Shown piece by piece: positions 1 to 19,725 of a stretch of DNA of 64,000 nt (position 1 is the first letter of the stretch; every line of letters begins with the position of its first letter). Made by a program: the position numbers and the translations under genes. The notes under the pieces are model-generated. The model worked only from the letters and a program-made list of their open reading frames with translations. It was not told the origin of the DNA and did no database searches. The stretch is from Candidatus Bathyarchaeota archaeon (GTDB lineage Archaea > Thermoproteota > Bathyarchaeia > Bathyarchaeales > Bathycorpusculaceae), in the NCBI GenBank assembly GCA_963715865.1, contig OY970280.1, positions 1,152,001-1,216,000 of the forward strand, in the 5' to 3' direction.

Positions 1-1083
1 GCTGCTTTTCACCGTTGGACTAAACTTTTCGAGGAAATCGGCGTGGCTTCGTAGTTTTTTGAGTGCTGAAAGCAACGCTGGATGACCATGAACTCGCATT
101 TCCGTGTGCTCCCACAACCTGCCTTCCCTTATGGCTTGCTTTATGCGTTTTAACTCCGCTACGCAAACGTAAAGGTTGTGCTCAGCCAAGAAAACTTCGC
201 GTTCTTTTTTCGCTTTCCTTTCCAGTCCCCTCGGCGTTTCAGATGCGCATCTGGGGCAACTGCATGGGAAATAATCCAGCTCCTCAAGCCGCCACGTACC
301 GTTCTCAGTCATGTAACGGTTTTCTCGAGCGTACAAGGCGTAAGCGGCTGAATCGAAAAGGTCGCATCCCAGCGCCACTGCCAACGAGAACATGGCTGGG
401 TGCCCCGCACCAAACAGATGCAGCGGACGCTCGAGGGGTAAGCCTTTTTTCGCTGTCAGTATCATGTCAGCTAAAACGTCGTAGCGGTAGCTTTCCATCA
501 CTTCAGTTGGGCTTCCAAGCGCGTGGATTTGGAAGGGCAGCTTTCCCATTTCAACCGCTGAGTTAGCGACGAGGTCAAGGTGTCTTCCGCCTTGCACTGG
601 CCCCACCCACAAGATGTCGTCTCGCGTTTTGGTTTTGAAAAAGTCTTTTGCTCTCCGCAGGGTTTCAGCCACGGTTTTTTCGGCTTGTTCTTTGGTTACT
701 TTCCAGCCTGTTGGAATATCAAGCATGGTGGCGATGTCGCTGCCGATGCCTTCTTGGTAGGCCACGATTTCTTTTTGGCTAACATCCACCTCGCCGTAAA
801 CGAGGATTTGGTAGGCTCCTGAATCAGTCATCACGGCGCCATCGAAATCAAGAAATTTATGCAAGCCCTCATCTATTGGCTTGTTTTGGTAGCGTTTTTT
901 TAGTATGTAAGCGTTAGTTATGATTGCTTCAAAACCGAACGTTTCCTTGAGCTTTCTCGGCGGAACAGGCTGAATGCTGGGGTTAATTACTGGGAATAAG
1001 AGTGGAGTTTCCACTGTTCCGCTTTTAGTTTTTAGTTTGCCTATTCTGCCTAGTAGGTCTTTTTCTTTTATTTCGAAACTCAA
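1..1083 (-). CDS. tgtA: Archaeosine tRNA-guanine transglycosylase (7-cyano-7-deazaguanine tRNA-ribosyltransferase); 3' end runs off the window
   Basis: Not in ORF track; hand translation from TTG at 1083: MSFEIKEKDLLGRIGKLKT..TPLLFPVINP..MTDSGAYQ..GPVQGG..HLFGAGHP..GCDLFDSAAY..CSCPRC; open to position 1. Confidence 0.95.
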   Translation of the reverse strand, partial: MSFEIKEKDLLGRIGKLKTKSGTVETPLLFPVINPSIQPVPPRKLKETFGFEAIITNAYILKKRYQNKPIDEGLHKFLDFDGAVMTDSGAYQILVYGEVDVSQKEIVAYQEGIGSDIATMLDIPTGWKVTKEQAEKTVAETLRRAKDFFKTKTRDDILWVGPVQGGRHLDLVANSAVEMGKLPFQIHALGSPTEVMESYRYDVLADMILTAKKGLPLERPLHLFGAGHPAMFSLAVALGCDLFDSAAYALYARENRYMTENGTWRLEELDYFPCSCPRCASETPRGLERKAKKEREVFLAEHNLYVCVAELKRIKQAIREGRLWEHTEMRVHGHPALLSALKKLRSHADFLEKFSPTVKSS

Positions 1084-1250
1084 CGCTGAAGCCTAAACAA
1101 GAATCGTTACTCGCTTATAAAAAAGATAAGGTAAATTTTTTTAAATCAAAAACATTCTTGTCAGCTCGCAAGTGAAACGCGATTGCCATTTGGATTAGAC
1201 ATCCTTATATCGCATAATTTGTCTAATACCGAGAAGAGAGATGCGAAAAC

Positions 1251-2003
1251 ATGGTTTGCTCAATAGACATAAGCGAAAAACCAAAACTAAACGACCCAAT
1301 CCTAATTGAAGGGTTGCCCGGCATAGGGTTTGTAGCTAATATTGCAGCGTTACATTTGATAAAAGAGTTAAAAGCTAAACGGTTCGTCCAAATATTTTCC
1401 TCGTCATTTCAGGATTTTGCAGTAACAACCGAAAATGGTGGAACGCTTTCGCCTATAAATGAACTCTATTATGCTAAGCGAGAGGATGGTGGACGCGACT
1501 TGATTATTTGGTATGGGAACACTCAGGCGCTGACAACTGTTGGGCAATACGAGCTATGCGGCAAAGTGCTTGATTTAGCGCAGGAGCTTGGCTGCCGCTT
1601 AGTAATATCTATCGGCGGCTTCAAAAAAGACGAAGCTCAACCTGTACCAGCAATTTACAGCACAGCCACGGATTTGGACACAATGAAAGAGGCGCTTGAT
1701 TTAGGAACTAAAGTGATGGTTGGACATGTTTTTGGCATTGCTGGTTTATCCATTGGATTAGCAAGGATTAGAGATTTGAAGGGTTTCTCTCTTTTGGTAG
1801 ATACGCCGGGAATGAATCCTGACGTGAACGCTGCGCGGTTCGCATTGACTACAGTTGGTAAATACTTGAACCTTAACATTGACTTATCAAAACTTGAAGC
1901 CAGCAGTGGCGAGATTAAGAAAATTTTAGAATCCTTTGGCATTATTAGAAGCATAACAGAAGAAAAGAAGAAAGAGGAAGAACAACTGCGCTGGTTTATT
2001 TAG
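1251..2003 (+). CDS. PAC2-family proteasome assembly chaperone-like protein
   Basis: PILIEGLPGIGFVANIAA, GNTQ, ISIGG motifs typical of the archaeal PAC2/PbaB family. Confidence 0.85.
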   Translation: MVCSIDISEKPKLNDPILIEGLPGIGFVANIAALHLIKELKAKRFVQIFSSSFQDFAVTTENGGTLSPINELYYAKREDGGRDLIIWYGNTQALTTVGQYELCGKVLDLAQELGCRLVISIGGFKKDEAQPVPAIYSTATDLDTMKEALDLGTKVMVGHVFGIAGLSIGLARIRDLKGFSLLVDTPGMNPDVNAARFALTTVGKYLNLNIDLSKLEASSGEIKKILESFGIIRSITEEKKKEEEQLRWFI

Positions 2004-2422
2004 GGTTTAACTTCGCTCATGAATTGTTCGTATACTTTTTGCACTCGGTCGGCAGCTGGACCTGAGCCTTCAACAACGCCTTTTTCTGTTAATTTCACTT
2101 TGTCCATGACCCAGATGAAGCCCTTGTCTTCGTATAGTTTAACCATGGTTGGGAAGACTTTTTCAAGTCTTGAGGCTAAGGCTTTGAGGTCGAAGGGTTT
2201 TTCTGCGCTTGATATTTGAGCAACCACGTTCCCGTTTAAGAATACTCGGTGAAGTAAGTTTCCAGATTCGTCTTTTGCATCGGCTATGCAAAGACTCATA
2301 TTGTCAGGGTTAATGCCGATGAGTGTACCTTTGAATGTTTTTCCAGTAGTTGTCACTACAGACACGGTTTTATCTGCTAACGCCGCGATTTCAGTGAAAT
2401 ACTTTCTTTGCACTACAGACAA
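2000..2422 (-). CDS. Sm-like archaeal protein with C-terminal extension (SmAP3/Lsm type)
   Basis: Sm1 motif (V.TTTGKTFKGTLIGINPDNMSLCIADA) plus C-terminal domain; TTG at 2422 follows GGAG (ORF track starts 2461). Confidence 0.8.
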   Translation of the reverse strand: MSVVQRKYFTEIAALADKTVSVVTTTGKTFKGTLIGINPDNMSLCIADAKDESGNLLHRVFLNGNVVAQISSAEKPFDLKALASRLEKVFPTMVKLYEDKGFIWVMDKVKLTEKGVVEGSGPAADRVQKVYEQFMSEVKP

Positions 2423-2662
2423 GTTTATTTCTCCTTTAAAGTAACGAGATTGCACTACCACTATTTATCTTTGATTTATATAGCATACTAGAAAACGGTC
2501 GGCGGCTTGATTTTTCATGCGACAGCTTTGAAAATTGGTTGCTATCTGCACTTTAGTTGGTAATTGCTAATCTGCAAGTTCAAAGTTTATTAGGCTTTAA
2601 GTCATAGTGCTCTTTCGCAAAAGTAATATTCTTAGTAAGAAATAGTATTGTTGCTGGTTTAA

Positions 2663-3082
2663 ATGCCCGTTAACGTGAGCCAAATTAAGCAGAGGATAAC
2701 TGAAGTTTTAGATGCAAAGGCAGAGTTAAATAGGTTGACTTTAAAGCCTTACGCTGAACTGAACGTGGAAGAGAAATACGCCATCAGGTACCACATCATA
2801 GTCATTGCAGAAGCTTTGGGAAGCGTATGCCTGCACATAGCTAAAGAAGACCTTCAACAAGAACCTTTATCGTACTCTGAATGCTTTAGACTTCTCGATG
2901 AAGAAGGCATAAGTGACAACTGTGCCAAAGAGTTAACTGTATTAGTGAGGCTTAGGAACTTACTAACCCACCGATACTGGATAATAGATGATAGTCAAGT
3001 TTACAACTCAATTAAAAACGACTTTAAAAGCGTCAATAAATTTTTAAAGAGTGTGCAGGAAAAATATGCAATCGACTTATGA
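2663..3082 (+). CDS. HEPN/DUF86 (HepT-like) RNase toxin
   Basis: R-x4-H motif RNLLTHRY, 139 aa, overlaps MNT gene. Confidence 0.85.
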   Translation: MPVNVSQIKQRITEVLDAKAELNRLTLKPYAELNVEEKYAIRYHIIVIAEALGSVCLHIAKEDLQQEPLSYSECFRLLDEEGISDNCAKELTVLVRLRNLLTHRYWIIDDSQVYNSIKNDFKSVNKFLKSVQEKYAIDL

Positions 3083-3416
3083 CAGAATACAGTATTACAG
3101 GATAGGGCAGAAAGAAAAGGAAGGCATTATCAGGAAACTTAAGGCTTTACTTGCCAAGGAGAACCAAGTTAAGCTTGCTTGGCTTTTTGGTAGCTTTTGC
3201 CGGCGAGACAGTATAAGAGACATAGACTTAGCCATCCACTCGGAACCAGAACTTTCTTTCAAAGAACTCCTTAACTTAAACGCGCAAATAGAGCTGGAGT
3301 TGAGCTTGCCTGTGGATATGGTAGAGATAGCGAGAGTTCCCAAAGTTCTTAAAGAAAAAATTTACACAAGCGGCGTTCTCATTAAGGGAACCAAAAAGGC
3401 TCCAGCATTAGGTTAA
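3066..3416 (+). CDS. Minimal nucleotidyltransferase (MNT/MntA-like antitoxin)
   Basis: AWLFGS..RDIDLAI and VDMVEI motifs; ATG at 3066 overlaps HEPN stop. Confidence 0.85.
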   Translation: MQSTYDRIQYYRIGQKEKEGIIRKLKALLAKENQVKLAWLFGSFCRRDSIRDIDLAIHSEPELSFKELLNLNAQIELELSLPVDMVEIARVPKVLKEKIYTSGVLIKGTKKAPALG

Positions 3417-3503
3417 AAGGAAAATCGCGCAAGCTTCAATTTTTCAACGCTTCACAGGGGTATGCGTTTTTGGGCTATTTTTATACAGAACAACTAAACG
3501 TTT

Positions 3504-4784
3504 TCAGGTTTTCTTTTCTTGTATTTCGCAGTTCTGCTTAAGGAACGCAACCGAGTTTGCAGGCAAATCGCGCTCAACCATTAAGTTTGGTCCCACCCAA
3601 CTGTTTACGCCTACCTTTACTCCGGGCATAAACAGCGACTTAATCCCTGTTTTCACGTTGTCGCCAAGGACAGCGCCGAGTTTTCTTCTGCCAGTATCAA
3701 CCAGCTGGTCTTTTACCATCATTTTGATTGGCCCAGCGTCTAAACGGTAATTAGCCGTGACGGTACCCGCGCCCAGGTTGCAGTGCTCGCCAAGGATGCT
3801 GTCGCCAACGTAAGACAAGTGCCCCACATGCGTGTAATCCATGATGATGCTGTTTTTGATTTCGCAAGCGTTGCCTACACGCACTTTTCTGCCTAAACTC
3901 GTGCCCGCTCGAATGTAACAGTTAGGTCCCACATCGCATTCTTCGTCGATAAAGCAGGGTCCTTCAATGTAGGCGCCTGAGCGGATGCGTGCTGATTCTG
4001 CAACTGAAACTGGACCGATAAGGTGGGCTCCTTGCTCTATCGTGCCTAAAAGTTGGTGCTCAATGCGTTTTAAAGCCCAATTGTTAGCATCCAGCAAATC
4101 CCAAGGCCTCCCCACGTCAAACCAGTCATCCTTCGAAATCTCGGCAGCCAAAACCGTTTTGCCTTCTTTAGCCAACAACGTTACGGCATCGGTGAGCTCC
4201 CATTCATTGCGGACGGAAGCTTTTGTTTGCTTTATTTTATTAAAAATCTCACGGGAAAACACGTACACTCCTGCATTAGCCAAGTTTGACGGCGCTTTCC
4301 CAGTAGCAGGCTTCTCCACGATGCGCTTAACCTTTTTCTCCTTGTCTAACTCGATTATTCCGTAGCTTTCAGGCTTCTCCACGGGCACGACACCCATGAC
4401 GGCAGCGGTTTTTCCGCGCTTGTACGACTGCAAGACGTTTTTTACGGCGTCTGGACCGAACAATAAATCTCCGTAAACAAGAATAAAATCATCGTCAACA
4501 TAGGGTTCAGCCACGCTGGCGGCGTTTCCTGTGCCAAGCGCTGCTTTTTGCTCAACATAAATGATGCGTAAGCCAAGTTTTTCGCCGTCTCCGAAGTATT
4601 GGTGAATCGCGTCACCCATGTAATGCGTAACAATTATTGCCTCGGTTATTCCAGCGTTTTTTACCGCTTCCAAGCAGAACTGCAAGATTGGTTTTCCGCC
4701 AACCTTAATCAAATGCTTAGGACGCGTCGCCGTTATCGGCAAAAGCCTAACGCCTTCCCCAGCCGCTAACAATACAGCCTTCAT
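3504..4784 (-). CDS. glmU: Bifunctional sugar-1-phosphate nucleotidylyltransferase/acetyltransferase (archaeal GlmU-like)
   Basis: LAAGEGVRLLPITATRPK motif, C-terminal hexapeptide repeats, HLSYVGDS; adjacent to glmM. Confidence 0.9.
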   Translation of the reverse strand: MKAVLLAAGEGVRLLPITATRPKHLIKVGGKPILQFCLEAVKNAGITEAIIVTHYMGDAIHQYFGDGEKLGLRIIYVEQKAALGTGNAASVAEPYVDDDFILVYGDLLFGPDAVKNVLQSYKRGKTAAVMGVVPVEKPESYGIIELDKEKKVKRIVEKPATGKAPSNLANAGVYVFSREIFNKIKQTKASVRNEWELTDAVTLLAKEGKTVLAAEISKDDWFDVGRPWDLLDANNWALKRIEHQLLGTIEQGAHLIGPVSVAESARIRSGAYIEGPCFIDEECDVGPNCYIRAGTSLGRKVRVGNACEIKNSIIMDYTHVGHLSYVGDSILGEHCNLGAGTVTANYRLDAGPIKMMVKDQLVDTGRRKLGAVLGDNVKTGIKSLFMPGVKVGVNSWVGPNLMVERDLPANSVAFLKQNCEIQEKKT

Positions 4785-6146
4785 TTCATTTCAGCCTCAA
4801 TTTGCTTCTTTATTAGTGCTGTTGCCTTTTCGGTTATATCATTTGCCACTGCTAATGATTCTCCTTCAACAGTTAAGCGGATAAGCGGTTCCGTTCCAGA
4901 AGCCCTAACCAGCAACCAACCGTCTTTTAGCGCTAACCGGACGCCGTCAACCGTGGAGAAATCAGTGTAATCTGGAAACGCCGTTTTTAGGGTAGCCCCA
5001 ATTTTTGCCACCGCCTTGTACTTTAACTCCTTTTTGCAAGTAACGTTTTCCCGCAGCGTAATGTACTCGGGAACCGCACCGACAAACTCAGATACACTTT
5101 TGCCTTCATCTTCCAAAGCTTTCAAGAACAACGCTGCAGACAACGGCCCATCAGGACAATAATGAAGCTGCGGATGCACCCAAGCGCCGCATGGCTCCCC
5201 TCCGAAAACAGCACCCGACGCGCTTGATGGCTTCTGAAATGTAAATGTCCCCAACTTTAGAGCGAATGACTCTGCCGCCCTGCGTTTGCGCCATCGTTTC
5301 AACACACATTGACGCTTCAACATTTGTTACCACTGTTCCACCGCCACTCCGCTTAAGCGCATAAGCAGCATACGCAGCCAGTGAACGGTCAAAGTTGACA
5401 AAAGCGCCTTTCTCATCTATGAAGGCTACACGGTCGCCATCGCCATCAAAAGCAATGCCTGCATCAGCGCCAAGCGTTTTGACAACCTTTGCCAAATCCT
5501 TGAGCGATTCAGCGGTCGGCTCAGATTTTCGGGCTGGGAAATACCCGTCTGGGTGAGCGTTAAGAGCAGTTACCTTGCAGCCCATGGCTTTCAACATTGC
5601 AGGGGCCACGTCGAAGGTGGCGCCGCATCCTGGATCAACAACAATCTGCCATCGCTTGCGGAGTGCAACAGCTTTCAGCGCCATTTCCATGTAAACTTGG
5701 CTTGCATCGATGGGGGTGGTTTTGCCGAGGCTGCGCCAATCTGCCAACGCAAAAGTCTCCTCAGCCACTTTTTTCTCCACTGCGTTTTGGTCCTCGTCGG
5801 TATAAGATAAGCTATCGCCATTGAAGACTTTTATTCCGTTATACTGTGGTGGATTATGCGAGGCAGTAAGCATGAATCCTGCATCCGCCCCAAACGCTTT
5901 AGTGGCATAAGCTAGAGCAGGCGTGGGAACTATGCCAGCCAAAAGAACTTCGGTGCCACTTGATAGCAAACCAGAAACCAAGGCATCCTCAAGCATGCTG
6001 CCGCTAACTCGCGTGTCACGGGCTACAACTGCTTTTTTGGCTTTTGCATATGTAGCCACCGCTAAACCAACCTTGCAAGCTAGCAATGGTGTTAAGTCAA
6101 CGTTTGCTAAGCCTCTTACGCCTGAGCTTCCAAACAGTTTAGCCAT
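4781..6146 (-). pseudogene. glmM: Phosphoglucosamine mutase, split by a +1 frameshift at 5214-5216 (probably intact gene plus indel error)
   Basis: LFGSSGVRG, TASHNP, DGDGDR in one frame; GAVFGGEPCG..RASGTEPLIR in the next; removing one G from CGC GTC GGG TGC joins them. Confidence 0.9.
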
Positions 6147-7630: not shown

Positions 7631-8452
7631 TTAGCCGAGGATGAATCGAACAAGCAACCAGACCATATCGCCAAACAGTAAGGCGACAATTAAACCTAAA
7701 GTTATGAATATTAGCATGGGTAAACCAGGCGTTGCCCACACATAGGCATCGATTTTTCCTGCCTGAGCTGCGTTAGATAAGCGTTCAACAATTTTATCTC
7801 GCCCCTCATCACGTGGAACAACTACTAGTTTTCGTTTTAAAGCGTTCTCGCCGTCATCTTCCACATCTTCCATAGGAAAAACGTGCCATTTCTCCTTTAA
7901 CTTGGCAACAGTCACTTTGTAACCAGTTATCAAGATAACCACTTTTTTCCATAGTGATTCATGTGCGAGTGTTCCTGCGAACATTTTTTTGCCAGTTTTT
8001 TTGTGCCAAACCAAATTGCGCAGAATCATGTATATGCCGCTGGCTGCTGCGAACAAGACGGCGTTGCTGAATATGGTTAACGGGAATATGAACTGTGAGA
8101 TGGGTGATAAGCTTCCACCTCCCAAGATGGGGGAGAATAGGTTTTCAGGAGCGAAGGGCAAGGCAAAGGCGATGCACATGAGGGCTTTTGAGTCAGCGCC
8201 GCCAAACGCACCCGAATAGAACAACAAAAACGCCAACCCGACGGTAAAGCCTACGCTAATGCCGAAAAGGGCAAGTTTTGAGGAGTCATAGAGGAGTAAC
8301 TCTGCAAGTGAAAGCGCGACTGCAATAGGTGCATAGATTGCCCAGACGCGGTTGCTTACTTCTCGGGTTTTGTAGTCGCTCCATGATGCATAAATGAGGA
8401 AGGCTGCTGTAACTGACACCCTTGCCGCAGTGAAGATTACTTGGAAGGTCAA
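7631..8452 (-). CDS. pibD: Prepilin/class III signal peptidase (A24, PibD/FlaK family)
   Basis: Catalytic aspartates in ASWSDYKTREV and FGGADSKAL; C-terminal WATPGLPMLIFIT; ends the pilus operon. Confidence 0.9.
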   Translation of the reverse strand: MTFQVIFTAARVSVTAAFLIYASWSDYKTREVSNRVWAIYAPIAVALSLAELLLYDSSKLALFGISVGFTVGLAFLLFYSGAFGGADSKALMCIAFALPFAPENLFSPILGGGSLSPISQFIFPLTIFSNAVLFAAASGIYMILRNLVWHKKTGKKMFAGTLAHESLWKKVVILITGYKVTVAKLKEKWHVFPMEDVEDDGENALKRKLVVVPRDEGRDKIVERLSNAAQAGKIDAYVWATPGLPMLIFITLGLIVALLFGDMVWLLVRFILG

Positions 8453-8563: not shown

Positions 8564-11500
8564 CTAGTTTTCAATGTCTATAGTTATTGTTGGCGGCAGC
8601 TCAGCCAGTATCCAGAGTCCAGGTTGACCGTATCCGCTATAAATTGGGGGAGCGGAACCATCAAAAGTTGCCACTGCACCATACCAAGTCACATCCAAGG
8701 CAGTTTGGAATGAAACGGGGCTAAGCGTCACGGGAAGCAACGAGATTGTTTGAGCTGAGGAGTCCGCTTTAATTGCTCCTGTAGCATTTGCGAGAGACAT
8801 GGCGTCAAAGACGTAAAGCATTTGGTTAGCTTGGTCAGTGAACATTATGCCTGCACCTTTTGTGCTGTCGGTGAATTGGCTCCAGTGATGCACCGAAGTT
8901 CCTGTGGAGTTGCTGAATGTTTGTGTGCCGCTTGCAACAACCGGGTCGCCGTTCAAAGTCCCGTTTTCAGTTTGCAATTGTCCTACATTTGAAGTCATGT
9001 TAATTGGGCATAGGTCGGTTATTGTGCGGGTTTGCGTTGAATTGATAAACATGAGACTAAGTTGATAAGTGTAGTAGGTTGCGTTAGCAGGTAAAGTGAG
9101 CACCATGTCAGCGTAGAGGTTTGGACAATTATTAACTCCGTTGTTCCATTCGGCTTCCTGTTGCACTATGTCTCGAACTACGCCGTTGTATATGACATAG
9201 TCTATTCCAGATCCGTAAGTGCTATCTTGATTGTTTATTCGCATGAAACTTGCCGTGCTCGAGGTGCTGGTACCAACAACTGTTGAAGTTACGATGAAAC
9301 CGCCGCTGAATTGGAGACTTAACTTCCCATTGCTAAGCAAGTTGCCACTTGGATTGTCGCTAGTAAAGTACGTGTTCGTATAAGCCAAGGGAGTTTGTGC
9401 TGCTTGGTCGCTGCCGTTCCACCACACAGTGAAATCTGAAACGTGAGTGTTTACAAGAAAAACAATCATTTGCCTGTTACCAAAAACCGTTGTGTTATCT
9501 GTTAATCCTAACGGAACAGTGTAGGAAGATGCCCAGTCTTCAATTTGGAAGGGCACTTGTTGATTGACGCCGTCTATGGTTTCGTTAACGTGAATGGCTT
9601 TCACGGGAACAGGCGGAACAGGAACAGTTTGAGTCGTATTTTGCAGGTTTTGACCTAACCAGATCATAGTTCCATTTTGAAGGAGCTCGACGGCAACTGT
9701 TGCTGCTGGATTTTGTAGTGACAAGAATAGGTCTTGATCAGACTGTGGTCTAAGAAGAGCCGCATCTATCTGCCACCCTTTCGGTATTATAGTGTTGCTG
9801 GCGCTGAATCTGATTGTAAAATTAGGCGAGGTTAAATATGAACTGATGGAAAGGTTGTTCCAGCCGCTAACTAAAGAATTTGAGATAGGCTGCCATGCGC
9901 CACCGTTCCAAGCGTCAACCGCCAATCCTGCAGGTGAAGATGCACCTGTGTTGATGCAGAGGACTGGGTGAGAATTAAAGTAGGTTGCATTCACGTCTGT
10001 CCATTGTTCTTGGAGGTTAAGCATGTAGCTAGGAACATCTGGACTATACTGCACCATGTCCAGATTCAGGTTAAACTGCGTCGTAGTTGATTTAGTGGCT
10101 GTAATCATGACTTTCCAGTATCCGCTACTGTTCAAAAAGCTAGTCGGGATAGCAGTGATTGTTTGAGTATTTAATGAATCGCTGGTTCCGATTGTAGCAG
10201 TCATGAATCCGTCACCGCTGTTTGGGTACAGCCCTGTGCCCCAGTTGTAAAGCTGGAAAGTGGCAGTTACGCCGCTGATAGAAGCTAAGCTGTCTATTGT
10301 CCAAATAAGGTCATTCCAAGGGGTAGACGCGCTTGATTGCCCAGTGAACTCAACCTGTGCAGTGTATTGGTTTGCTGTTGAGTAAGTGCAGTAGATGCTA
10401 TACGCTCGTTGGTTACCTTGACCTTGATCACTAAGAGATGTTGGCCAAGTTGGGTAGCTTGCAGAACCTCTGAAGTACTCAGCCGTGCCCGAATCGTAGT
10501 ATATGTTGACGCTTGTATCCGAGGCTTCAACCGCCAAAACATAGTTTGTGGATGCCATCAAATTTAGTTGAGATATAAAGTTGAATGTAACCCAACCATT
10601 CACAGTGGTTAATACATTTTCTTGAGTACTTGCGATTAGTGTACTGCCATCACCAGAATAGATGCCAGCCTGCGCTTTGAACGCGGTGAGATAGTTGCAT
10701 CGAATGGAGTATTGATTGGAATTCGATGAAAAACTTGGGGAGGATGGCCAGTTGCTGCCATAAGTTGATGAGACGTACCGGCCACTACCGCCAGAAGAAG
10801 AACGATAAAGGAGTGCGTCGCCACCAGTTCCAGAGTCAGACCAAACAACCAGTATGTAATTCGTATTTGCCGTTAAGGTTGGTTTAGGATCATTGAAGAC
10901 AAAATTTTGTGAGCCAGTGCCTACCGAAATTAACTTTTCTTGCGTTGCACCAATAAAATTGCCGTTTGAGTCGTAAATAGCTGCTTTGATGTGCTTTGCG
11001 CTCACTGTGACAGATATGTAGGCGTCTATGCTTTGAGCGAGGGCGAGAGTTGCTCCAGATGTAAATGATCCGGAGTTAAATATGCTGCCTCTAAGGGTGT
11101 TAAGGAGAGTTGGAGTTCCCGATGAACCGCCGCCTGTGTTGGTTGTTCCAAAATTGTTTGATGATGACGTAAATGTTAGATACGCGCTTATGCTGTTGGC
11201 TAGACCCGCTTGGGTTATTGTAAAGCTGGAACCCCTAACATAGTTAAAGCCGCTTGGAGATTTGCCATTGGTGACATAGCCGAAAGTGTTGGATGCCCCC
11301 GAAAAATTAGACCCGTAAGAGTGGAAACTCATGTACACGCCGTTGCAACTTTGCAGGTCATTTGTTGTACCACTAGCCCAAGTTGTTGAACCTATCGGGT
11401 TCCAGTATATGGGGTAGCTTGGTTGTGGCACTGTTCCGGAGGTTGCTTCTGTCATGGTGTCATATATAGCGTCTGGACCTTGCTGTTGTGCTGTAAAGTT

Positions 11501-12325
11501 GCTGTGGGCACCTTGATCGGGAATAGAATCTATGCTTGAGTTATATTGGTCTACGTAATCTCCGCCGCTCACTACACTGCTGTTGAATATTAGGCTTCCA
11601 GTGTAGTGGCTAAATGAGGAAGCTGCAACCGTGATGCCGCGGGTGTCTTGCACCTGAATGGCGAAGCCCTGTGGGTTTATTCCAGACGGGATATCAATAA
11701 TGTAGGTACCGTTGCTGGAAGAGGCGGGCTCATCGGGCGGGTTCGCCATTGCCCAGGACAAGTTATTATATTCATAAAGATAAAATTTGAAACTTGACAT
11801 GCTTAAACCGACTACAGGCGTATTTTCGTCTTTGACAACGGTTAGGGAAACTTGATTGTTGGAGGAAGAGGGATTAATCTGGACATCTAGTCGGCAGGAT
11901 GCTGTGTATGCTATGCCACAGATGCCTAGCCCTGTTAGGTCGTATGTGACGTTTAGGTTTGCTTGGCTATAGCTTGCGTTCGTAAACCAGTTAGTGCCTA
12001 GCGACAGGTTAGCGACGTTGAAGGAGGCGCCCCACTCGGGTTTTATGTCAGCCACGTTTTCTAAACCGCTGTCCAAGTATTTTGTGGCAAGCGTTTGGGC
12101 ATATGACGAGTTACCTGTAACTTGCATAACGGAGCCGTAGTAGCCTACGGTGAAGCCTAAAATTTGTTTCAGCGCCAAGTTAGTTTCATCTATGGCGCTT
12201 AAGATTTGGGGTTGATCTTGAATTGGGCTATAGCGTATTGCAGCGTAGGTTGCCGTGACTGAAGCTACTAGAACTATTGCAACCAGCAAAGCGGCAATAA
12301 TTGAAAACTGTCCCTTATTGTTCAA
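8564..12325 (-). CDS. Giant (~1250 aa) pilin-like surface protein/adhesin with class III signal peptide
   Basis: TTG at 12325 directly after upstream stop gives MNNKG|QFSIIAALLVAIVLV; S/T/N/G-rich beta-sandwich modules; ORF track start 12349. Confidence 0.8.
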   Translation of the reverse strand: MNNKGQFSIIAALLVAIVLVASVTATYAAIRYSPIQDQPQILSAIDETNLALKQILGFTVGYYGSVMQVTGNSSYAQTLATKYLDSGLENVADIKPEWGASFNVANLSLGTNWFTNASYSQANLNVTYDLTGLGICGIAYTASCRLDVQINPSSSNNQVSLTVVKDENTPVVGLSMSSFKFYLYEYNNLSWAMANPPDEPASSSNGTYIIDIPSGINPQGFAIQVQDTRGITVAASSFSHYTGSLIFNSSVVSGGDYVDQYNSSIDSIPDQGAHSNFTAQQQGPDAIYDTMTEATSGTVPQPSYPIYWNPIGSTTWASGTTNDLQSCNGVYMSFHSYGSNFSGASNTFGYVTNGKSPSGFNYVRGSSFTITQAGLANSISAYLTFTSSSNNFGTTNTGGGSSGTPTLLNTLRGSIFNSGSFTSGATLALAQSIDAYISVTVSAKHIKAAIYDSNGNFIGATQEKLISVGTGSQNFVFNDPKPTLTANTNYILVVWSDSGTGGDALLYRSSSGGSGRYVSSTYGSNWPSSPSFSSNSNQYSIRCNYLTAFKAQAGIYSGDGSTLIASTQENVLTTVNGWVTFNFISQLNLMASTNYVLAVEASDTSVNIYYDSGTAEYFRGSASYPTWPTSLSDQGQGNQRAYSIYCTYSTANQYTAQVEFTGQSSASTPWNDLIWTIDSLASISGVTATFQLYNWGTGLYPNSGDGFMTATIGTSDSLNTQTITAIPTSFLNSSGYWKVMITATKSTTTQFNLNLDMVQYSPDVPSYMLNLQEQWTDVNATYFNSHPVLCINTGASSPAGLAVDAWNGGAWQPISNSLVSGWNNLSISSYLTSPNFTIRFSASNTIIPKGWQIDAALLRPQSDQDLFLSLQNPAATVAVELLQNGTMIWLGQNLQNTTQTVPVPPVPVKAIHVNETIDGVNQQVPFQIEDWASSYTVPLGLTDNTTVFGNRQMIVFLVNTHVSDFTVWWNGSDQAAQTPLAYTNTYFTSDNPSGNLLSNGKLSLQFSGGFIVTSTVVGTSTSSTASFMRINNQDSTYGSGIDYVIYNGVVRDIVQQEAEWNNGVNNCPNLYADMVLTLPANATYYTYQLSLMFINSTQTRTITDLCPINMTSNVGQLQTENGTLNGDPVVASGTQTFSNSTGTSVHHWSQFTDSTKGAGIMFTDQANQMLYVFDAMSLANATGAIKADSSAQTISLLPVTLSPVSFQTALDVTWYGAVATFDGSAPPIYSGYGQPGLWILAELPPTITIDIEN

Positions 12326-12326
12326 T

Positions 12327-13670
12327 TTAGGCGCCTCCAGCCAGTCCAAGTTGTAAAACTACCAGTCGGGAAGTTCCTGATGCTGTATATTCCGAAGGGT
12401 AGAGACTAGGTTGATAATCGGACAATAAGCCCAGTGCTGTGAGTCTGATGTCTGGAGTTCGCGTTAAACCTAAAGCGTAGAATCCACCTTGGTATTGTGA
12501 TGTCTGGTTAACCGTAATAAAGTGCCGATAAATCGCGCCTGGGTTCCAACTGCCCACAGTGTTAAAAACGTAAGTTGTCACATTTAGGTGATAACTGTTT
12601 AGAATAGAGGTTGGTAATGCTCTCGTCGAAGTCTGAGTTTGTGATGGATAAATACCATAATAGTTGCAGCTTCCCAAGGCTTTATTGGACAGATTTACTA
12701 AGCCAGGACTGCCAGTAGTGCTATCACCATATGAATAGGTCTGATTGTCTATCCCTTGAAGGAAGGCGGTTAATCCTGCTGCACCGTCACCACCGTTCTT
12801 GCCGATCATATTCATACCATATATGCCCCAAGTGTTCTGGCTGTTGGAAAACAAAGCAACATTTGACACGTAATAGAATGGCCACCCAACTATGCTGGCC
12901 CATGTCCAATTGTACTGCAAAACTCTCTGACCTATTGTATAAGCATAGCGTGTATAGGAACTGCTGGCAGAATCATAACCGACTCCTGTGCTCTGGTAAT
13001 AACCAGACGGAATAGGCACTGCTTCTCCGCATGTGTTAATGATTACGGCGTTCTGAACTGCTTCGCCTTGCAGTGCTGTCCCGTTTAGTATCTGTGCAAG
13101 CTGTGCAGTATTCTGCACCATTATTGTGTTAACAAAATACGGCGATAATAGATTGTACAAGTCTTGAGCTAAACTTTGCGCGGTATAACCGGTAATCCAC
13201 CAGCCGTTTGCATCACTGCAATTCAAAATGTATAGTGTTCCGCCGTTGCCGTTCTCACCTATTTTCTGCGGTGTAAAATTAAAAGTCACGTTTGAAGAAG
13301 CTACTGTGTACGTTGAAACATCGGAGGTTGCACCTAGAGTCTCAGCGTTTGAAATAGAAGTTACATCACTGTAAAGTGGCACTCCGCCAGCGTTTACATC
13401 ATAGACTGTTAGATTGTATATGATGTTCGGTGGCAGTGAAGCTGAAAGAGCAACTTGTAGCCCACCCCAAAGCGTTGAATTATCCGTTTCAAACGCTGCT
13501 TTACTTAAATCATAATCAGAATCAAGCAGTTGCAAAGTCGTTAAAGACAGGCGGTTAAGATTTATTGGCGAAACCTGTCTTGGCGCCGGCAAAACAGCAA
13601 AGTAGGAAGCTCCTATGAATGCGCCAGCGAGAATTATTATTACGAATAACACTTCGATTGTGCGAATCAT
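12327..13670 (-). CDS. Pilin-like protein (N-terminal RTIE + hydrophobic helix), 447 aa
   Basis: MIRTIEVLFVIIILAGAFIG; operon position. Confidence 0.7.
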   Translation of the reverse strand: MIRTIEVLFVIIILAGAFIGASYFAVLPAPRQVSPINLNRLSLTTLQLLDSDYDLSKAAFETDNSTLWGGLQVALSASLPPNIIYNLTVYDVNAGGVPLYSDVTSISNAETLGATSDVSTYTVASSNVTFNFTPQKIGENGNGGTLYILNCSDANGWWITGYTAQSLAQDLYNLLSPYFVNTIMVQNTAQLAQILNGTALQGEAVQNAVIINTCGEAVPIPSGYYQSTGVGYDSASSSYTRYAYTIGQRVLQYNWTWASIVGWPFYYVSNVALFSNSQNTWGIYGMNMIGKNGGDGAAGLTAFLQGIDNQTYSYGDSTTGSPGLVNLSNKALGSCNYYGIYPSQTQTSTRALPTSILNSYHLNVTTYVFNTVGSWNPGAIYRHFITVNQTSQYQGGFYALGLTRTPDIRLTALGLLSDYQPSLYPSEYTASGTSRLVVLQLGLAGGA

Positions 13671-14919
13671 TTAGCCAGCCACCTGTACGCCTTGATTCCA
13701 CAATTCAAGTTTTGCTTGGTAGGCGATGCCGCCGATTGTTACTTGACGTATGTCAGTTGCAACCCACTCTTGCCCCTGAGGATTGCCCCCGAACGTTACT
13801 GGAAAAGCTAGAGAACTGATGCCCCAAGGCATCATTACTACGCCGCCTTGAGTGGAGCCCTCTTGTTGGTAGGTAACTATCAAAATGCCGGTTGTACATG
13901 TTGGCAAGGTAATAGAGTGATATGGGTTGCCAGGGCCAGAAATACTATAGTTCGCTATATCTGGATTGTTGGAACCTTCAAGAGACAACTCGCTAAGTGT
14001 ATAATCTTCTTTTAAGATAACAAAAGTGGCGTTATACTTTAGGGTACTTCCCTGTTGACCTGAATTGTTTAGGTCATAATTATGCGCCAATACAACTGTT
14101 TGCGAGCCCATATCCTGTACGATAGGAACGATGTATTGGTCGGTAGCTGAGACACGCGTGTGGTAGCCTACTCCTACAATGCCATCCAGATGTGCGTAGG
14201 CAATGAATGCATAATTTTGGTTTACATCTGTTACAGTTGGGAATAGTACGTTAGCCATACCTATGCTGATTAGTGGTGATGGCACTAGTTTGTATGGTGT
14301 AGGATGGATAGTCGGCGTCAGTTTGAGCCATTGTAACTAGGATGAGGCAGTAGTTTATGGTTGCACCGGCAAATGGAAAGCCTGTTCCACTTGCGCTTAT
14401 TAATAGATTTAACGGTGAGCCAAGGACGTTCGTTTGATTTACGGATACAGTAATGTCTGGAGTGAGTGTTAATTGGAAGCCGTATGTATTGTTTATTCCA
14501 AGCAGTGTCAACGCTGTGGAATAGTTAAGTGCTTGAGCGTTTGGCGTTAGCAGAGAGGCGCCAAATCCTAAACTTGCGTTGTTATAGTATATGCTGGGGC
14601 TGGTTTTGTCATATTCAACCATGTTTCCTGTTGAAGAACCCAGCCGCATAAGTGAAAAGGGACTTAGTTGATACTGGGTAAACTCTGGGTCCTGCAATCC
14701 GAAACCTGATGGTATACTACCATCGGTTCCCCAAGTGGCGTTTATGCCTGGATTCAAAAGTATGGTATCTAAAAGGTCGCTAGTTTTTGTTGACAACGAG
14801 CTGTGGCTTTCGTAAACAATTGCGGTTTGAATGGGTTGACTGAAAAGCCCGATAAAAATCAGGATAGCAGCGATGAACACTATGAGCGATACCATGTGGT
14901 CCAATGTTGCACTTGCCAT
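13671..14919 (-). pseudogene. Pilin-like protein split by a frameshift near 14265 (joins ORFs 14251-14925 and 13671-14285)
   Basis: MASATLDHMVSLIVFIAAILIF N-terminus; removing one base in AAT CAG C ATA GGT gives ..TTNQIGMANVLF.. continuous to 13671. Confidence 0.7.
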
Positions 14920-14921
14920 AC

Positions 14922-15410
14922 TCAAGTGCCTCCTTGAAAAGACAGCGAAATGATACCTGACGCTTTAGTGGCGCTTATGAGCGAAATATTGTTACTTTTA
15001 AATGTTGAATTGTTTTGCCAATAAGCATTTTGCCCCAAGGTAACGAGTGTTGAAGCTTTACCGCTGGCACCTATGAGGCTAAGAGTTAGGTTCATAACCT
15101 CAACCTTACTATTGAGATTTGTAGCATTGCTCAAAGTTATCATGTAATTGTAACCGTTATTACCATCTTCTATTGTAGTCGGCACGTCCAACTTGGCGGT
15201 AAGTGCACCGCTAGAAATCGACGCATGATTCATAGTGTAATAAAGCTGCTGGATAGAACTGCCTAAATGCCCCGATACCTCTTGAAGTTCCAATGTCATC
15301 CGTGAATTAGACCAAGCACCCATAATTGTTGTGGCAGCGATTGGAAAAAGGAAAATTTGCAGAATCAAAATCGGAACCATAATCATGTATTCAATAGTTA
15401 CCTGCGGCAA
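14922..15410 (-). CDS. Minor pilin/TadE-like protein
   Basis: MP|QVTIEYMIMVPILIL, Glu at +5; RBS GGAGGGTG upstream. Confidence 0.75.
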   Translation of the reverse strand: MPQVTIEYMIMVPILILQIFLFPIAATTIMGAWSNSRMTLELQEVSGHLGSSIQQLYYTMNHASISSGALTAKLDVPTTIEDGNNGYNYMITLSNATNLNSKVEVMNLTLSLIGASGKASTLVTLGQNAYWQNNSTFKSNNISLISATKASGIISLSFQGGT

Positions 15411-15427
15411 TTTTCACCCTCCATGTA

Positions 15428-16280
15428 CTATACTTGCCCTTCAGCAACTTGCACCTCACCGAAGTAAAATTCAACAACCGAATTAGAAATGTTGAGTGTT
15501 ACAGTGTTGCTAGCAAAATTGAAAAAGGAAGCGTCAAATCCAGAGTTTGCGTTTGGACTAACACTAATAATTACTTTATTGACGCCAGTTTCAGTAATTT
15601 TTGTGACGTTTTCTCCAGTCAACGTTACAGATGGGGAACTAGAAAATGTTGTGCCACCCTTGGTCAAATATGGTATATAAAACTTGAAGTAACTTGTTGG
15701 CTGGGCACCCGTAATTGTAGAATTAAGCACTCTTATGGTAGGCACTAGGACTATTCGGGTATAGCTTGTGGCATTCGTGGATAGTTTTTCCTCGCAAAAT
15801 ACTTGACTTACTGGCGCTGAAGAACCACTTTGCAAAAATGAGCCGTTGGCAGAAATGGGAACTCGTTCAAAGTAATTGTTGCCTACTGAATATGAACTTA
15901 CAGGCATATTGTATAGAATGATTCCTGTTTCAGGCGCGGTGAAATTTACCCATCCTGAACTGCTGGTGTAAAGTTGAAAGGTGTAATTTAGCACTGATTC
16001 ATTAAAATTTAGGACTCCGTACTTGCTTGAGTAGGTAACCGTCTGTGTTCGACCAATCGTCCAAGCTATGTCGTCTATTTGCTGTCCAGTCGTTTGCATG
16101 AATTGTTGGTTAGTGCTGAATTCGTTCTGAGCCATCTGTATATTCAAGGTATTATACGCGTAACTCATGGCTACTAAAATCATGACGATGCCAGCAGCAG
16201 TAAGTATAACGGTTGAAATGGCGGGACTAATTGCTCTCTTGTCCTTTCGTAAACTTCGGTGACAATTTCTCGTATTTCAC
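15428..16280 (-). pseudogene. Type IV pilin-like protein with canonical class III signal, +1 frameshift at 16251-16253
   Basis: GTG at 16280 after GGAGAG; deleting one T gives MKYEKLSPKLRKDKRA|ISPAISTVILTAAGIVMILV continuous with ORF 15428-16183. Confidence 0.75.
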
Positions 16281-16286
16281 TCTCTC

Positions 16287-18020
16287 CTATCCGAGTTTTA
16301 CGAATTGTGGAATTAGCTTTGCTGCTATTACTGAAATAAGTACTAGAATGGCTGCATGCTTGAAACCGGCTCCGATAGACTCTTCACTTATTTTTCCGCC
16401 AACAATTCCTATAAGGTAACTGTTGAAGATAACTGCTGTCATGAATATCGTTTGCATCAAGCCTTTGCTCTGGGATGCTGTTTGCGTAACTCCCGCAGTT
16501 GTTGCGCCAAACCCTGTAGTAAAACTCATCATCATAACAGTTGTTGCAACAAGAAGGATCGATGCTAGATACGGCATCATAACGTATGGTCGCACTGACA
16601 TCTTCTTTTCCTTCTCTACATCTTGAGTAAGATTGTTAAAGCTGGCAAGAGATTCAATCATGGCGATGGTGCCGCCGCCCACATCTATGGTTTCAACTAG
16701 GAGAAACATTACTATTTGCACCATCCAACTGCGCGTACGGTGAAGAAAATCCATCATTACCCTTTTGATTGGGATACCCCACGAAATCTCAGAGCTAATT
16801 TTGCGAAGTTCTTTGCTAAAGGTGCCATAGTCACGTTTTGATAGGCTTTCGATGCATTTTTCAGGCGATAAACCTGTTTTTCGTACTTCCGTGAGGTCTC
16901 TGAGAAAACTTGTGACGCCCTGCTCCATGCTGTTCTTGGTTTTTGACAATCTTATATGCACGATGGCTGCTGGCGCAGTAGAAATAAACAAGGCAACAGA
17001 TATTGCTATGGGCAAATCAACACCCCACGCTTGCAAGGTGCTGAAAAAGGGAAGCTGAGTAGCGCCCATGAAGTTTGTTAGCAGTAAGAAGACGATTATG
17101 CCTATTACGCTACAGACGCCGAACACTTTGTAGGGGCGCATTTCCACCATCGGCGTTTTCGGCTGCATGCTGTGAGCTAGATATATGAAGAGCATTGAAA
17201 GCATTGGAGTGAAGAGGAAAGTGTACATGAGTATACCTGAGTAAGAGGATAAGTCGGTGCCGGTAGTAGTGTTGGTTCCAGTCTGGATTTGCTGTACGGC
17301 GAAAAGTATGTAAAAACAAAGAGACATCATCACCATGACAATGATGAATGTTTCAAGTAACATTCCAAGGCGTTCGGCAGCCGCTTTAAAGCGTAAAGCG
17401 CGGGTTTTGAATATGTCTTCAGCTTTCCGCTCAAGGAAGTGCCCGATGTCGCCGCCGATGATTACGGTTGAAGCGTAACCGCCTAAGAAGTCTTTGAACA
17501 TGTCCAGCGGCGTCTTTTTTGCAGCTCCTTCTAGGGCTGACAGCGGGTCAACGCCGAAGACTTCAACGTCCTTCATTATGTCTCTGGCTTCTTTACGCAT
17601 TGCTGGCATGAGGTCTACTTCTGATAGGCGTTTGAAGCTAGTGTATGGCGCTATGCCTCCGGATGCCATGACGCTGATGTATGCTGCTGCAAAAGGCATT
17701 TCGCGCTCCAAGTTTGATGATCTGTCGCTGGCATTTGACATTGGCACAACTAAGAAGCCGCCGACTACAAAAAGCGGAACTGGTACCAAAATAAGCAGGG
17801 GTATAAAATGGAAGAGCAAAACCATCACTATAGCCAGCACTGATACTGGAAGAGTTAGCATAGCAGTGAAGAACATTAGCGAAATGTAGGTGTCAGGGTA
17901 AATTTTTACCCGTCCCTTTTCCAAGGAACCTTTAACGTGGAAGACATTTTTCTGAAAGTATGGCGCTATGCGTCCGAAGAGGCGAAAGGACAGGGCTTCA
18001 AATTTCTCTAGAAACGGCAA
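16287..18020 (-). CDS. Type II secretion system F family membrane platform protein (TadC/ArlJ-like, two T2SSF domains)
   Basis: Multi-TM; REMPFAAAYISVMASGG, FLRDLTEVRKTG, IDVGGG; overlaps ATPase stop. Confidence 0.9.
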   Translation of the reverse strand: MPFLEKFEALSFRLFGRIAPYFQKNVFHVKGSLEKGRVKIYPDTYISLMFFTAMLTLPVSVLAIVMVLLFHFIPLLILVPVPLFVVGGFLVVPMSNASDRSSNLEREMPFAAAYISVMASGGIAPYTSFKRLSEVDLMPAMRKEARDIMKDVEVFGVDPLSALEGAAKKTPLDMFKDFLGGYASTVIIGGDIGHFLERKAEDIFKTRALRFKAAAERLGMLLETFIIVMVMMSLCFYILFAVQQIQTGTNTTTGTDLSSYSGILMYTFLFTPMLSMLFIYLAHSMQPKTPMVEMRPYKVFGVCSVIGIIVFLLLTNFMGATQLPFFSTLQAWGVDLPIAISVALFISTAPAAIVHIRLSKTKNSMEQGVTSFLRDLTEVRKTGLSPEKCIESLSKRDYGTFSKELRKISSEISWGIPIKRVMMDFLHRTRSWMVQIVMFLLVETIDVGGGTIAMIESLASFNNLTQDVEKEKKMSVRPYVMMPYLASILLVATTVMMMSFTTGFGATTAGVTQTASQSKGLMQTIFMTAVIFNSYLIGIVGGKISEESIGAGFKHAAILVLISVIAAKLIPQFVKLG

Positions 18021-19725
18021 CTGGCTTTACCTCCTCACCTGCAAGGATTTTTTGATAGAATTCTTTTGGCCTTGCGTAGTATTCTGCGATTATTGAGGCT
18101 ACTTCTTTGTAGCTTCTGATTTTTTGTTCTCGCATCCAGTGCAGGACGTCGCTGCGTCTTTTCATTTCGTCAAGTAAATCCTGTGTGGTTATGCCTAACC
18201 GTTTAGAAAATGATGATAACAATGCGCTGTTGTCGACGGCAATTATTTGCTCATCTTTGAGTGGATCCCATCGGAAAGGATTTAAATAGTTTTCATAGCC
18301 AACGATTTCGTTAACGGAAAGTATGCGCCTGTAAGCTTTCTTTACGCCGTTCTTAACTAAATGGACGCGCTGCACGGATATGACGAGATTCATTAATGGA
18401 ATATATGCTGGAGAAATTTCCATGGGTTTCTGGGTTAACCGTTTTACGGCTGAATCCAAGTTTTCAGCGTGCATGGTGCACATGCCACCGTGACCAGTGG
18501 CTAAGGCCTGGAAGAGAACGTATGCTTCTTGACCTCGCACCTCGCCTACAATTAACATGTCAGGGCGGTGACGCATGGAAGTTTTTACTAGGTCAAAGAG
18601 GGCTACCTCGCCAACGCTGTTTCCGCCTAAACCGTAACTTTGCCTTGCGATAAGTGAAACCCAATTTTCATGGGACAAGTTTAGCTCTGCGGTTTCTTCT
18701 ATAGTGATGATTTTGTTGCCTGGCTTGATGAGGCATCCTAATGCGTTTAGTGCAGTTGTTTTACCTGCGGCTGTTCCACCGAGAATCATGATGGAAGCAC
18801 GATTTTCTAGGCAAATCCATAAGTAAGCAGCCATTTCTTCCGTGAATGTGCCTGTGTTGATTAAATCTATTATTGAGTAGGGGTCATCTCTGAATTTTCT
18901 GATTGTGAATGCTGTTCCGAAAGGCGTGATTTCTCGCCTGTAACATACGGCTAACCTGTGTTTTCCCGGAAGGGAAGCGTCAACTATTGGGAAGGCAGAA
19001 CTGACGTGTTTTCCAGCCATGTGAACAAGTTTAACGACCATGTTATCGAGGATTTCGTCGTTTTCAAATTGCACATTGGTTTCTATGCTTTCGAAGGTTC
19101 GATGCCAAATGTAAACTGACTTGTTTACTCCGTCGCATGAAATGTCTTCTATGTTTGGGTCGCGCATTAATGAATCGATTTTGCCAAAGCCGACAAGGTC
19201 ACGTTCTGCGTGGTAGAGGATTTTGTACCATGAAACATCGGGTAACCAGCCTAAGCTGATTCGGTATTTGTCTACTATTTTTTTGGCTTCTTGGGCGAAG
19301 AATTTTCTTGGGTCTGTTATTTCTTCTTTTGGTGATTCTATTTCTGCCAGCAAGATTTCAAGGATGTGATTGTATATTCCTCGTTCCAGTGGGTCAAGTT
19401 GAAGTTCGTCTAGTATGTATTTGTATTCGCCTGTTTTGGGGTCTTGAACTATTGCAACTTGGGAAAATGGCTCGTATAAGGGGTATTTTTCAACTATTTT
19501 AATTCCTTTTGGTAAGGATTTGGATGCTAAGGGAATTGCTGGTTCAGGCGTTTTCTTTTTAAAACTTAGGTTGATTTTTGGCAATTTTATAGAGACACCT
19601 TTTTTGCCTGAGCTTTTTTTGCTTTTTGTTGGTGTTTTGAAGCGTGATTTGATTGCGTTCCCAGCTAGGCGTAGCTTGGCAATAGATTCTTTGAGCGATT
19701 GCTTGAAGCGAGGTAGCTTTGGCAT
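17998..19725 (-). CDS. Type II/IV secretion system ATPase (TadA/ArlI/VirB11 family)
   Basis: Walker A GGTAAGKTT, Asp box IEETAE, RHRPDMLIVGEVRG, His box TGHGGMCTMHA; Lys-rich N-terminal extension. Confidence 0.95.
   Translation of the reverse strand: MPKLPRFKQSLKESIAKLRLAGNAIKSRFKTPTKSKKSSGKKGVSIKLPKINLSFKKKTPEPAIPLASKSLPKGIKIVEKYPLYEPFSQVAIVQDPKTGEYKYILDELQLDPLERGIYNHILEILLAEIESPKEEITDPRKFFAQEAKKIVDKYRISLGWLPDVSWYKILYHAERDLVGFGKIDSLMRDPNIEDISCDGVNKSVYIWHRTFESIETNVQFENDEILDNMVVKLVHMAGKHVSSAFPIVDASLPGKHRLAVCYRREITPFGTAFTIRKFRDDPYSIIDLINTGTFTEEMAAYLWICLENRASIMILGGTAAGKTTALNALGCLIKPGNKIITIEETAELNLSHENWVSLIARQSYGLGGNSVGEVALFDLVKTSMRHRPDMLIVGEVRGQEAYVLFQALATGHGGMCTMHAENLDSAVKRLTQKPMEISPAYIPLMNLVISVQRVHLVKNGVKKAYRRILSVNEIVGYENYLNPFRWDPLKDEQIIAVDNSALLSSFSKRLGITTQDLLDEMKRRSDVLHWMREQKIRSYKEVASIIAEYYARPKEFYQKILAGEEVKPVAVSREI

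Follow-up and report, generated by a model that had tools for sequence, protein, structure and literature searches.

Domains nested within copies of themselves are already known. In the flagellin of Geovibrio thiophilus, domain D5 is a duplicate of D4 and is placed in a D4 loop (PMC11532411). In cyanobacterial RNA polymerase, the Si3 region of the beta' subunit consists of eight SBHMs that are nested six levels deep and form an elongated arm of ~150 A (PMC10895346, PMC13114784). Most insertions are simpler than this, and the majority of those in a survey of 48,551 are single-level (PMC13114784). The precedents found for self-nesting are either single structures or confined to one lineage.

The giant pilin-like protein described here (P0001) is encoded within a 64,000-nucleotide stretch of Candidatus Bathyarchaeota DNA, the whole of which is called the window below. 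It resembles the Geovibrio flagellin (PMC11532411) in having a self-nested domain, and Si3 (PMC10895346, PMC13114784) in the recursive nesting of homologous modules. The Geovibrio protein, however, is a bacterial flagellin with a FliD-related domain for which one level has been described, whereas the P0001 family consists of type IV pilins with a jelly-roll domain, a series of one, two, and three copies at one site, and extra nested shells. Similarly, Si3 is cytoplasmic and has branched nesting, with 8-10 domains among the representatives compared, whereas the nesting in the P0001 family is extracellular, strictly linear, furnished with exchangeable cargo, and common to different pilin genes. 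What distinguishes this system is a clean 1-2-3 series that has grown from its center, together with the linear nesting of four to six levels and the exchangeable tip. No description of this architecture was found in the part of the literature covered, which concerned DUF4082, the pilins of Bathyarchaeia, and recursive insertion within pilins.

The open reading frame for P0001 spans 8564-12349 on the minus strand and encodes 1261 amino acids from the TTG at 12349; the database gene call, of 1253 aa, begins at the TTG at 12325. Within this frame, a 156-aa module interrupts a homologous module, giving the following arrangement.

11168..11290, minus strand, aa 354-394: outer DUF4082-like jelly-roll, N half (from alignment, half profiles, and pairing tests)
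10691..11158, minus strand, aa 398-553: inner (tip) DUF4082-like jelly-roll, contiguous (from alignment, model, and PDB jelly-roll matches)
10382..10684, minus strand, aa 556-656: outer DUF4082-like jelly-roll, C half (from alignment, half profiles, and pairing tests)

The joints between the inner module and the outer halves comprise just 3 and 2 residues. A first-pass annotation of this DNA had proposed a module order of A1-B-A2, with an inner module of 161 aa at 11167-10685. The order is confirmed, and every motif named in that annotation lies in both copies where it had been placed. The inner module is likewise correctly positioned, but its extent is better given as 156 aa (11158-10691) plus the 3+2 linker residues. 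When the inner module is excised and the flanking halves are rejoined, the outer copy can be aligned with the inner copy from end to end, with 58 identities in 162 columns of a global alignment. The alignment scores 139, against an average of 5.7 (sd 11.9) for shuffled sequences (z=11.2; 0 of 2000 shuffles). Taken separately, the outer N half matches the inner copy with z=4.8 (1 of 2000 shuffles) and the outer C half with z=10.8, whereas the N half compared to the C half yields z=0.7. Thus, the two halves are not copies of one another. Furthermore, the rejoined outer copy is identical to the uninterrupted domain of the ortholog P0056 at 91 of 142 positions (64%), and therefore the rejoined domain occurs naturally.

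Default BLASTP of P0001 against itself reveals no internal repeat, and proteins of this kind can easily be mistaken for tandem repeats or overlooked by BLAST self-comparison. A blastn search gave no DNA match of more than 14 exact bases, and the matches obtained do not pair the copies. An assembly artefact or a recent duplication is ruled out by this lack of DNA similarity between the copies together with the existence of many homologs. The order of two N halves followed by two C halves (NNCC) is common to approximately 50 homologs, and the nesting of homologous modules in P0001 can be regarded as very highly probable.

A total of 244 proteins, with P0001 counted twice, were parsed with one profile for the N half and another for the C half. 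The homologs carry one, two, or three copies at one site (NC, 138 proteins; NNCC, 54; NNNCCC, 20), and these counts are not independent trials because the homologs are related. Median lengths in the big-pilin family for these three architectures are 1093, 1244, and 1397 aa. Each DUF4082-like copy is inserted in one loop of the preceding copy, near position 39-40 of the Pfam profile. Plain tandem order (NCNC) was found solely outside the big-pilin family, and its detection in those other proteins demonstrates that the half profiles can distinguish tandem from nested order.

The NNCC order alone cannot separate nesting from a history in which the N and C halves were duplicated separately in tandem and pair in an interleaved manner (N1 with the first C), or in which they are independent small repeats. 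The parse also contains two rows of order NNC and one of order NNNCCNC, which speak for such alternatives, but these three odd rows look truncated or misassembled. Both NNC rows stop either where the next C half begins or just beyond that point, and in P0099, one of the odd rows, an apparently out-of-frame tail follows. When each half is compared by its similarity profile to 135 single-domain proteins, 51 of 52 two-copy proteins favor nested pairing, and 18 of 20 three-copy proteins favor the fully nested permutation out of six that are possible, although these related sequences again do not represent independent trials. In the comparison of two-copy with three-copy proteins, 2N1 is nearest 3N1 in 47/48 cases, 2N2 is nearest 3N2 in 46/48, the last C is nearest the last C in 46/48, and 2C1 is nearest 3C2 in 42/48. 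Therefore, both extra halves in three-copy proteins are the innermost ones. Pairing statistics, positional orthology, and the two structural models described below all favor nesting, and separately duplicated or interleaved halves are extremely improbable. A natural graded series with 0, 1, 2, and 3 copies, grown from the center at one site, makes the origin of self-nested domains directly studiable.

The same domain also expands in the ordinary manner, as in P0114, where four near-identical module copies stand in tandem with Pro/Thr linkers between them. In one three-copy group (P0040, P0049-P0054), the C half of the outer copy and that of the middle copy show unusual similarity, up to 72% within a protein, which suggests homogenization by gene conversion.

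AlphaFold2 models were obtained for the two-copy region of P0001 (pLDDT 92.7, pTM 0.86) and for a three-copy homolog (pLDDT 92.5, pTM 0.75). In both, the innermost N and C halves form one contiguous jelly-roll, and the inner module of P0001 is predicted to fold contiguously inside a discontinuous host rather than as one of two ordinary tandem domains. Solved PDB jelly-rolls align over residues 46-207 of the two-copy model (aa 395-556), which cover the inner N and C halves only, and over residues 90-243 of the three-copy model, again the innermost pair. Some weak matches span model residues 1-313 with ~105 residues aligned, as is expected for a split outer domain. A Foldseek search of the two-domain model against PDB and BFVD returned single-domain, low-TM matches only, and no solved nested pair was found among them. 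The linker-free junction anticipated in the first-pass annotation is visible in the two-copy model as a single predicted strand (residues 200-216) that passes from the inner into the outer domain. From this continuous strand we infer that the nested domains would stack coaxially, and an insertion-tolerant loop of this type could offer a ready scaffold for linker-free domain stacking.

The models and their jelly-roll matches also bear out the beta-sandwich fold that had been proposed. The best structural match is Cwp84's lectin-like domain (PF18560; 4ci7), with Z scores of 14.1 and 14.3 for the two- and three-copy models, an rmsd of ~2.5, and ~139 residues aligned. Domains from phage tails and capsid-associated domains score about as well as this match, and PHR domains and many CBMs come next. 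In the predicted models, the inner module has the jelly-roll beta-sandwich fold of Lectin_like (PF18560)/CBM domains, and its atlas feature score to a PF18560 cluster is 0.91, but identity to the Cwp84 domain is only 9-13%. Searches with hmmscan gave no match to PF18560 or CBM profiles, and a PDB sequence search with P0001 gave no significant match.

At the sequence level, the suspected kinship to DUF4082 (PF13313) holds for the homologs of P0001 (E 1e-9). Three-copy homologs reach 38-39 bits summed and pass the gathering cut-off of 28.4 bits, with the C-half match beginning at profile position 39-40, whereas single domains score 21.6-24.7 bits and a Pfam scan of P0001 yielded neither a DUF4082 match nor any other significant match. 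The nested modules are thus best considered relatives of DUF4082 with borderline membership as judged by profile scores. In the excerpts of the literature that mention DUF4082, nesting is not the subject.

The first-pass annotation had further envisaged a domain duplicated into its own loop, and this part of the proposal is not supported. The inner copy shares 82 of 156 residues with the single domain of P0075 and 77 of 156 with that of P0086, two other pilins, compared to 58 of 162 with the outer copy of its own host and 59 of 156 with P0056, the closest single-copy relative of the host. Since its host is thus a more distant match to the inner copy than the single domains found in other pilins, this copy was probably imported from a paralog rather than duplicated in place. 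An in-place duplication followed by long divergence would be the simplest single event and has been reported for D5 within D4 of the Geovibrio flagellin (PMC11532411). An old event combined with a fast-evolving outer copy could mask such kinship, and singles of the P0056 type could have lost the inner copy at a later stage. Against this scenario, the closest relatives of the inner halves are single domains from other pilins (P0075-77, P0086, P0094), those of the outer halves are single-copy orthologs (P0056, P0063-66), and a C-half tree (FastTree, 105 columns, weakly resolved) places inner and outer copies in different groups. Duplication in place therefore seems quite improbable, and import from a paralog is the preferred reading. 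Among other proteins encoded in the same genome but outside the window, one pilin (G000:C1 1068484-1070238, minus strand) has the split shell X, described below, with a diverged module copy as its cargo, and a further protein (G000:C1 923258-925858, plus strand) has this shell around other cargo.

The nested pair is itself enclosed by further split shells, here called X and Y, that were overlooked when the pair was first noticed. These shells and the pilin core that carries them are arranged as follows.

11600..12325, minus strand, aa 9-250: pilin core, N part (joined directly to the C part in insert-less orthologs)
11444..11566, minus strand, aa 262-302: shell X, N half (palindromic co-occurrence with its own C half)
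11315..11422, minus strand, aa 310-345: shell Y, N half (half co-occurrence in orthologs)
10040..10372, minus strand, aa 660-770: shell Y, C half (half co-occurrence in orthologs)
9743..10033, minus strand, aa 773-869: shell X, C half (half co-occurrence in orthologs)
8567..9724, minus strand, aa 876-1261: pilin core, C part (conserved across the order, in 36/61 related genomes)

In insert-less orthologs (L067-L069, L071, L075), the two core parts are separated by 6-17 residues. Shell halves are gained and lost in pairs, yielding orders such as Xn-N-C-Xc and Yn-N-C-Yc, and P0037 and P0049 reach up to six nested levels with the order Yn-Xn-Yn-NNN-CCC-Yc-Xc-Yc. From this paired presence we infer that both X and Y represent split domains. 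Comparisons with hhalign found no homology between X and Y, or between either shell and the DUF4082-like module (probability <10%), an atlas search with the X and Y C halves gave leads below 0.9 only, and the sets searched contained neither shell as an uninterrupted domain. The nested stack is also common to different pilin backbones, with 69% identity over ~765 aa between P0037 and P0045.

Relatives in the same genus carry other cargo in the slot inside Y. In four of these loci (L064, L073, L074, L080), an unrelated domain holds a third unrelated domain ~40-60 residues in, which constitutes heterologous nesting. The host family of this pair occurs alone in L066, L052, and L057, the inner domain occurs alone in L063, L076, L077, and L081, and no Pfam match was obtained for the Y-slot domains of the four loci. 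In L072 (open reading frame 150-4319, minus strand), the slot is filled at aa ~346-774 by a repeat-rich domain of ~430 aa that looks like a beta-propeller in sequence and has no Pfam match. In L070 (open reading frame 371-3406, minus strand), shell X surrounds a CBM-like domain (weak Reelin subrepeat B match, E 8e-4) without shell Y. Where the core is uninterrupted, as in L067, L068, L069, and L071, the open frames are 1021-1575 aa and have long C-terminal extensions, which may be an alternative route to add cargo.

The gene for P0001 lies at the end of an operon for a type IV pilus, whose other components are listed here.

7631..8452, minus strand: prepilin peptidase (PF06847 and PF01478 above cut-off)
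12327..16183, minus strand: five co-oriented open reading frames upstream of P0001, mostly with hydrophobic pilin-like N-termini (from reading of the frames; a 204-aa frame is without such an N-terminus)
16287..18020, minus strand: TadC/FlaJ-type platform protein (PF00482, E 2e-25)
17998..19725, minus strand: type IV pilus assembly ATPase, PilB3-like (PF00437, E 3e-36; PF23989 weak)

This order of ATPase, TadC, pilin-like frames, and prepilin peptidase genes is kept in L085. The N-terminus of P0001, as read from its sequence, has a class III-type signal (KG|QF followed by a hydrophobic stretch), and a Pfam scan of the protein gave no match to a pilin family. All named homologs of P0001 are from Bathyarchaeia. 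For archaeal type IV pilus loci, Makarova 2016 hypothesizes that large members are tip adhesins (PMC4858521). The loci presented there resemble the P0001 operon in that a single operon combines genes for an ATPase and TadC with those for a peptidase and several class III-type proteins (PMC4858521). The paper does not mention Bathyarchaeia and predicts DUF2341 adhesins, and no nested architecture was found in its passages on these loci (PMC4858521).

Potential N-glycosylation sites are distributed unevenly in this protein family. P0001 has 25 N-x-S/T sequons, of which none is in the nested pair (7 expected). Across 81 orthologs, the stack has 110 sequons versus 389 expected, compared to 1848 versus 1175 for the remainder of the proteins, and the stack falls below expectation in 81 of 81 proteins. 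On this sequence evidence, the nested domains appear to avoid N-glycans, which fits either binding surfaces or buried contacts.

Taken together, these features point with moderate confidence to a predicted function for P0001 as a type IV pilus protein with a linker-free, sequon-poor adhesin arm that is resized by recombination. P0001 would be a large minor pilin or adhesin of the Bathyarchaeia type IV pilus operon, with a telescoping arm on its core in which X encloses Y, Y encloses the outer jelly-roll, and the outer jelly-roll encloses the inner one. The chain would run out and back through every domain to produce a stiff, linker-free arm with a single domain at its tip, and this arm might bind surfaces, glycans, or partner cells. 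Such a design suggests a second route, beside tandem repeats, to a rigid surface stalk with a swappable tip. Bathyarchaeia are abundant sediment archaea, most of them uncultured, and such an arm would also bear on their attachment to surfaces or partners.

Alternatively, the arm, although truly nested, may have a structural role alone. It would then act as a spacer or provide a surface for contacts among pilins or to the S-layer without binding any external ligand, and sequons would be avoided because the surfaces are buried. Jelly-rolls also have structural roles, for example in capsids, baseplates, and PHR domains, and the top fold matches of the nested modules include capsid and baseplate structural domains. 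The scarcity of sequons suits buried surfaces equally well, and the whole arm is absent from many orthologs. Even the Cwp84 lectin-like domain is without proven carbohydrate binding and without the usual binding region (PMC4089489). A purely structural arm nevertheless seems unlikely, because the content of the slot varies greatly within one genus and includes at least four unrelated cargo types, as would be the case for a selected interaction tip. Furthermore, the same domain caps the C-terminus of stalk proteins with PKD and InlB repeats (P0043, P0086, P0055), which is a typical adhesin position.

The copy number and cargo of the arm may change when alleles or paralogous pilin genes recombine, with the split halves acting as homology arms on the left and right sides. 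Where two levels are already present, a misaligned double crossover could add or remove one level while keeping the palindromic order, and events of this type, if they occur, would account for the paired gains and losses as well as for cargo exchange. As a tentative extension drawn from sequence comparisons, the nested split domains of Bathyarchaeia could be recombination cassettes, such that double crossovers between paralogous pilin genes lengthen, shorten, or re-tip pilus arms. If true, this would represent an adhesin-diversifying mechanism based on a Russian-doll architecture.

Reading frames that may be interrupted occur at other places in the window. Among the pilin-like frames of the operon, overlapping frames of 224 and 204 aa at 13671-14925 (minus strand) may be one frameshifted pilin-like gene; L083 has a 403-aa gene at this location, and L085 has fragments. 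At 4781-6146 (minus strand), a phosphohexomutase-like gene is seemingly split, whether through a frameshift, an assembly error, or a genuine division, over two overlapping frames of 331 and 180 aa, and its counterpart in L085 is likewise called as two open reading frames, of 346 and 89 aa.
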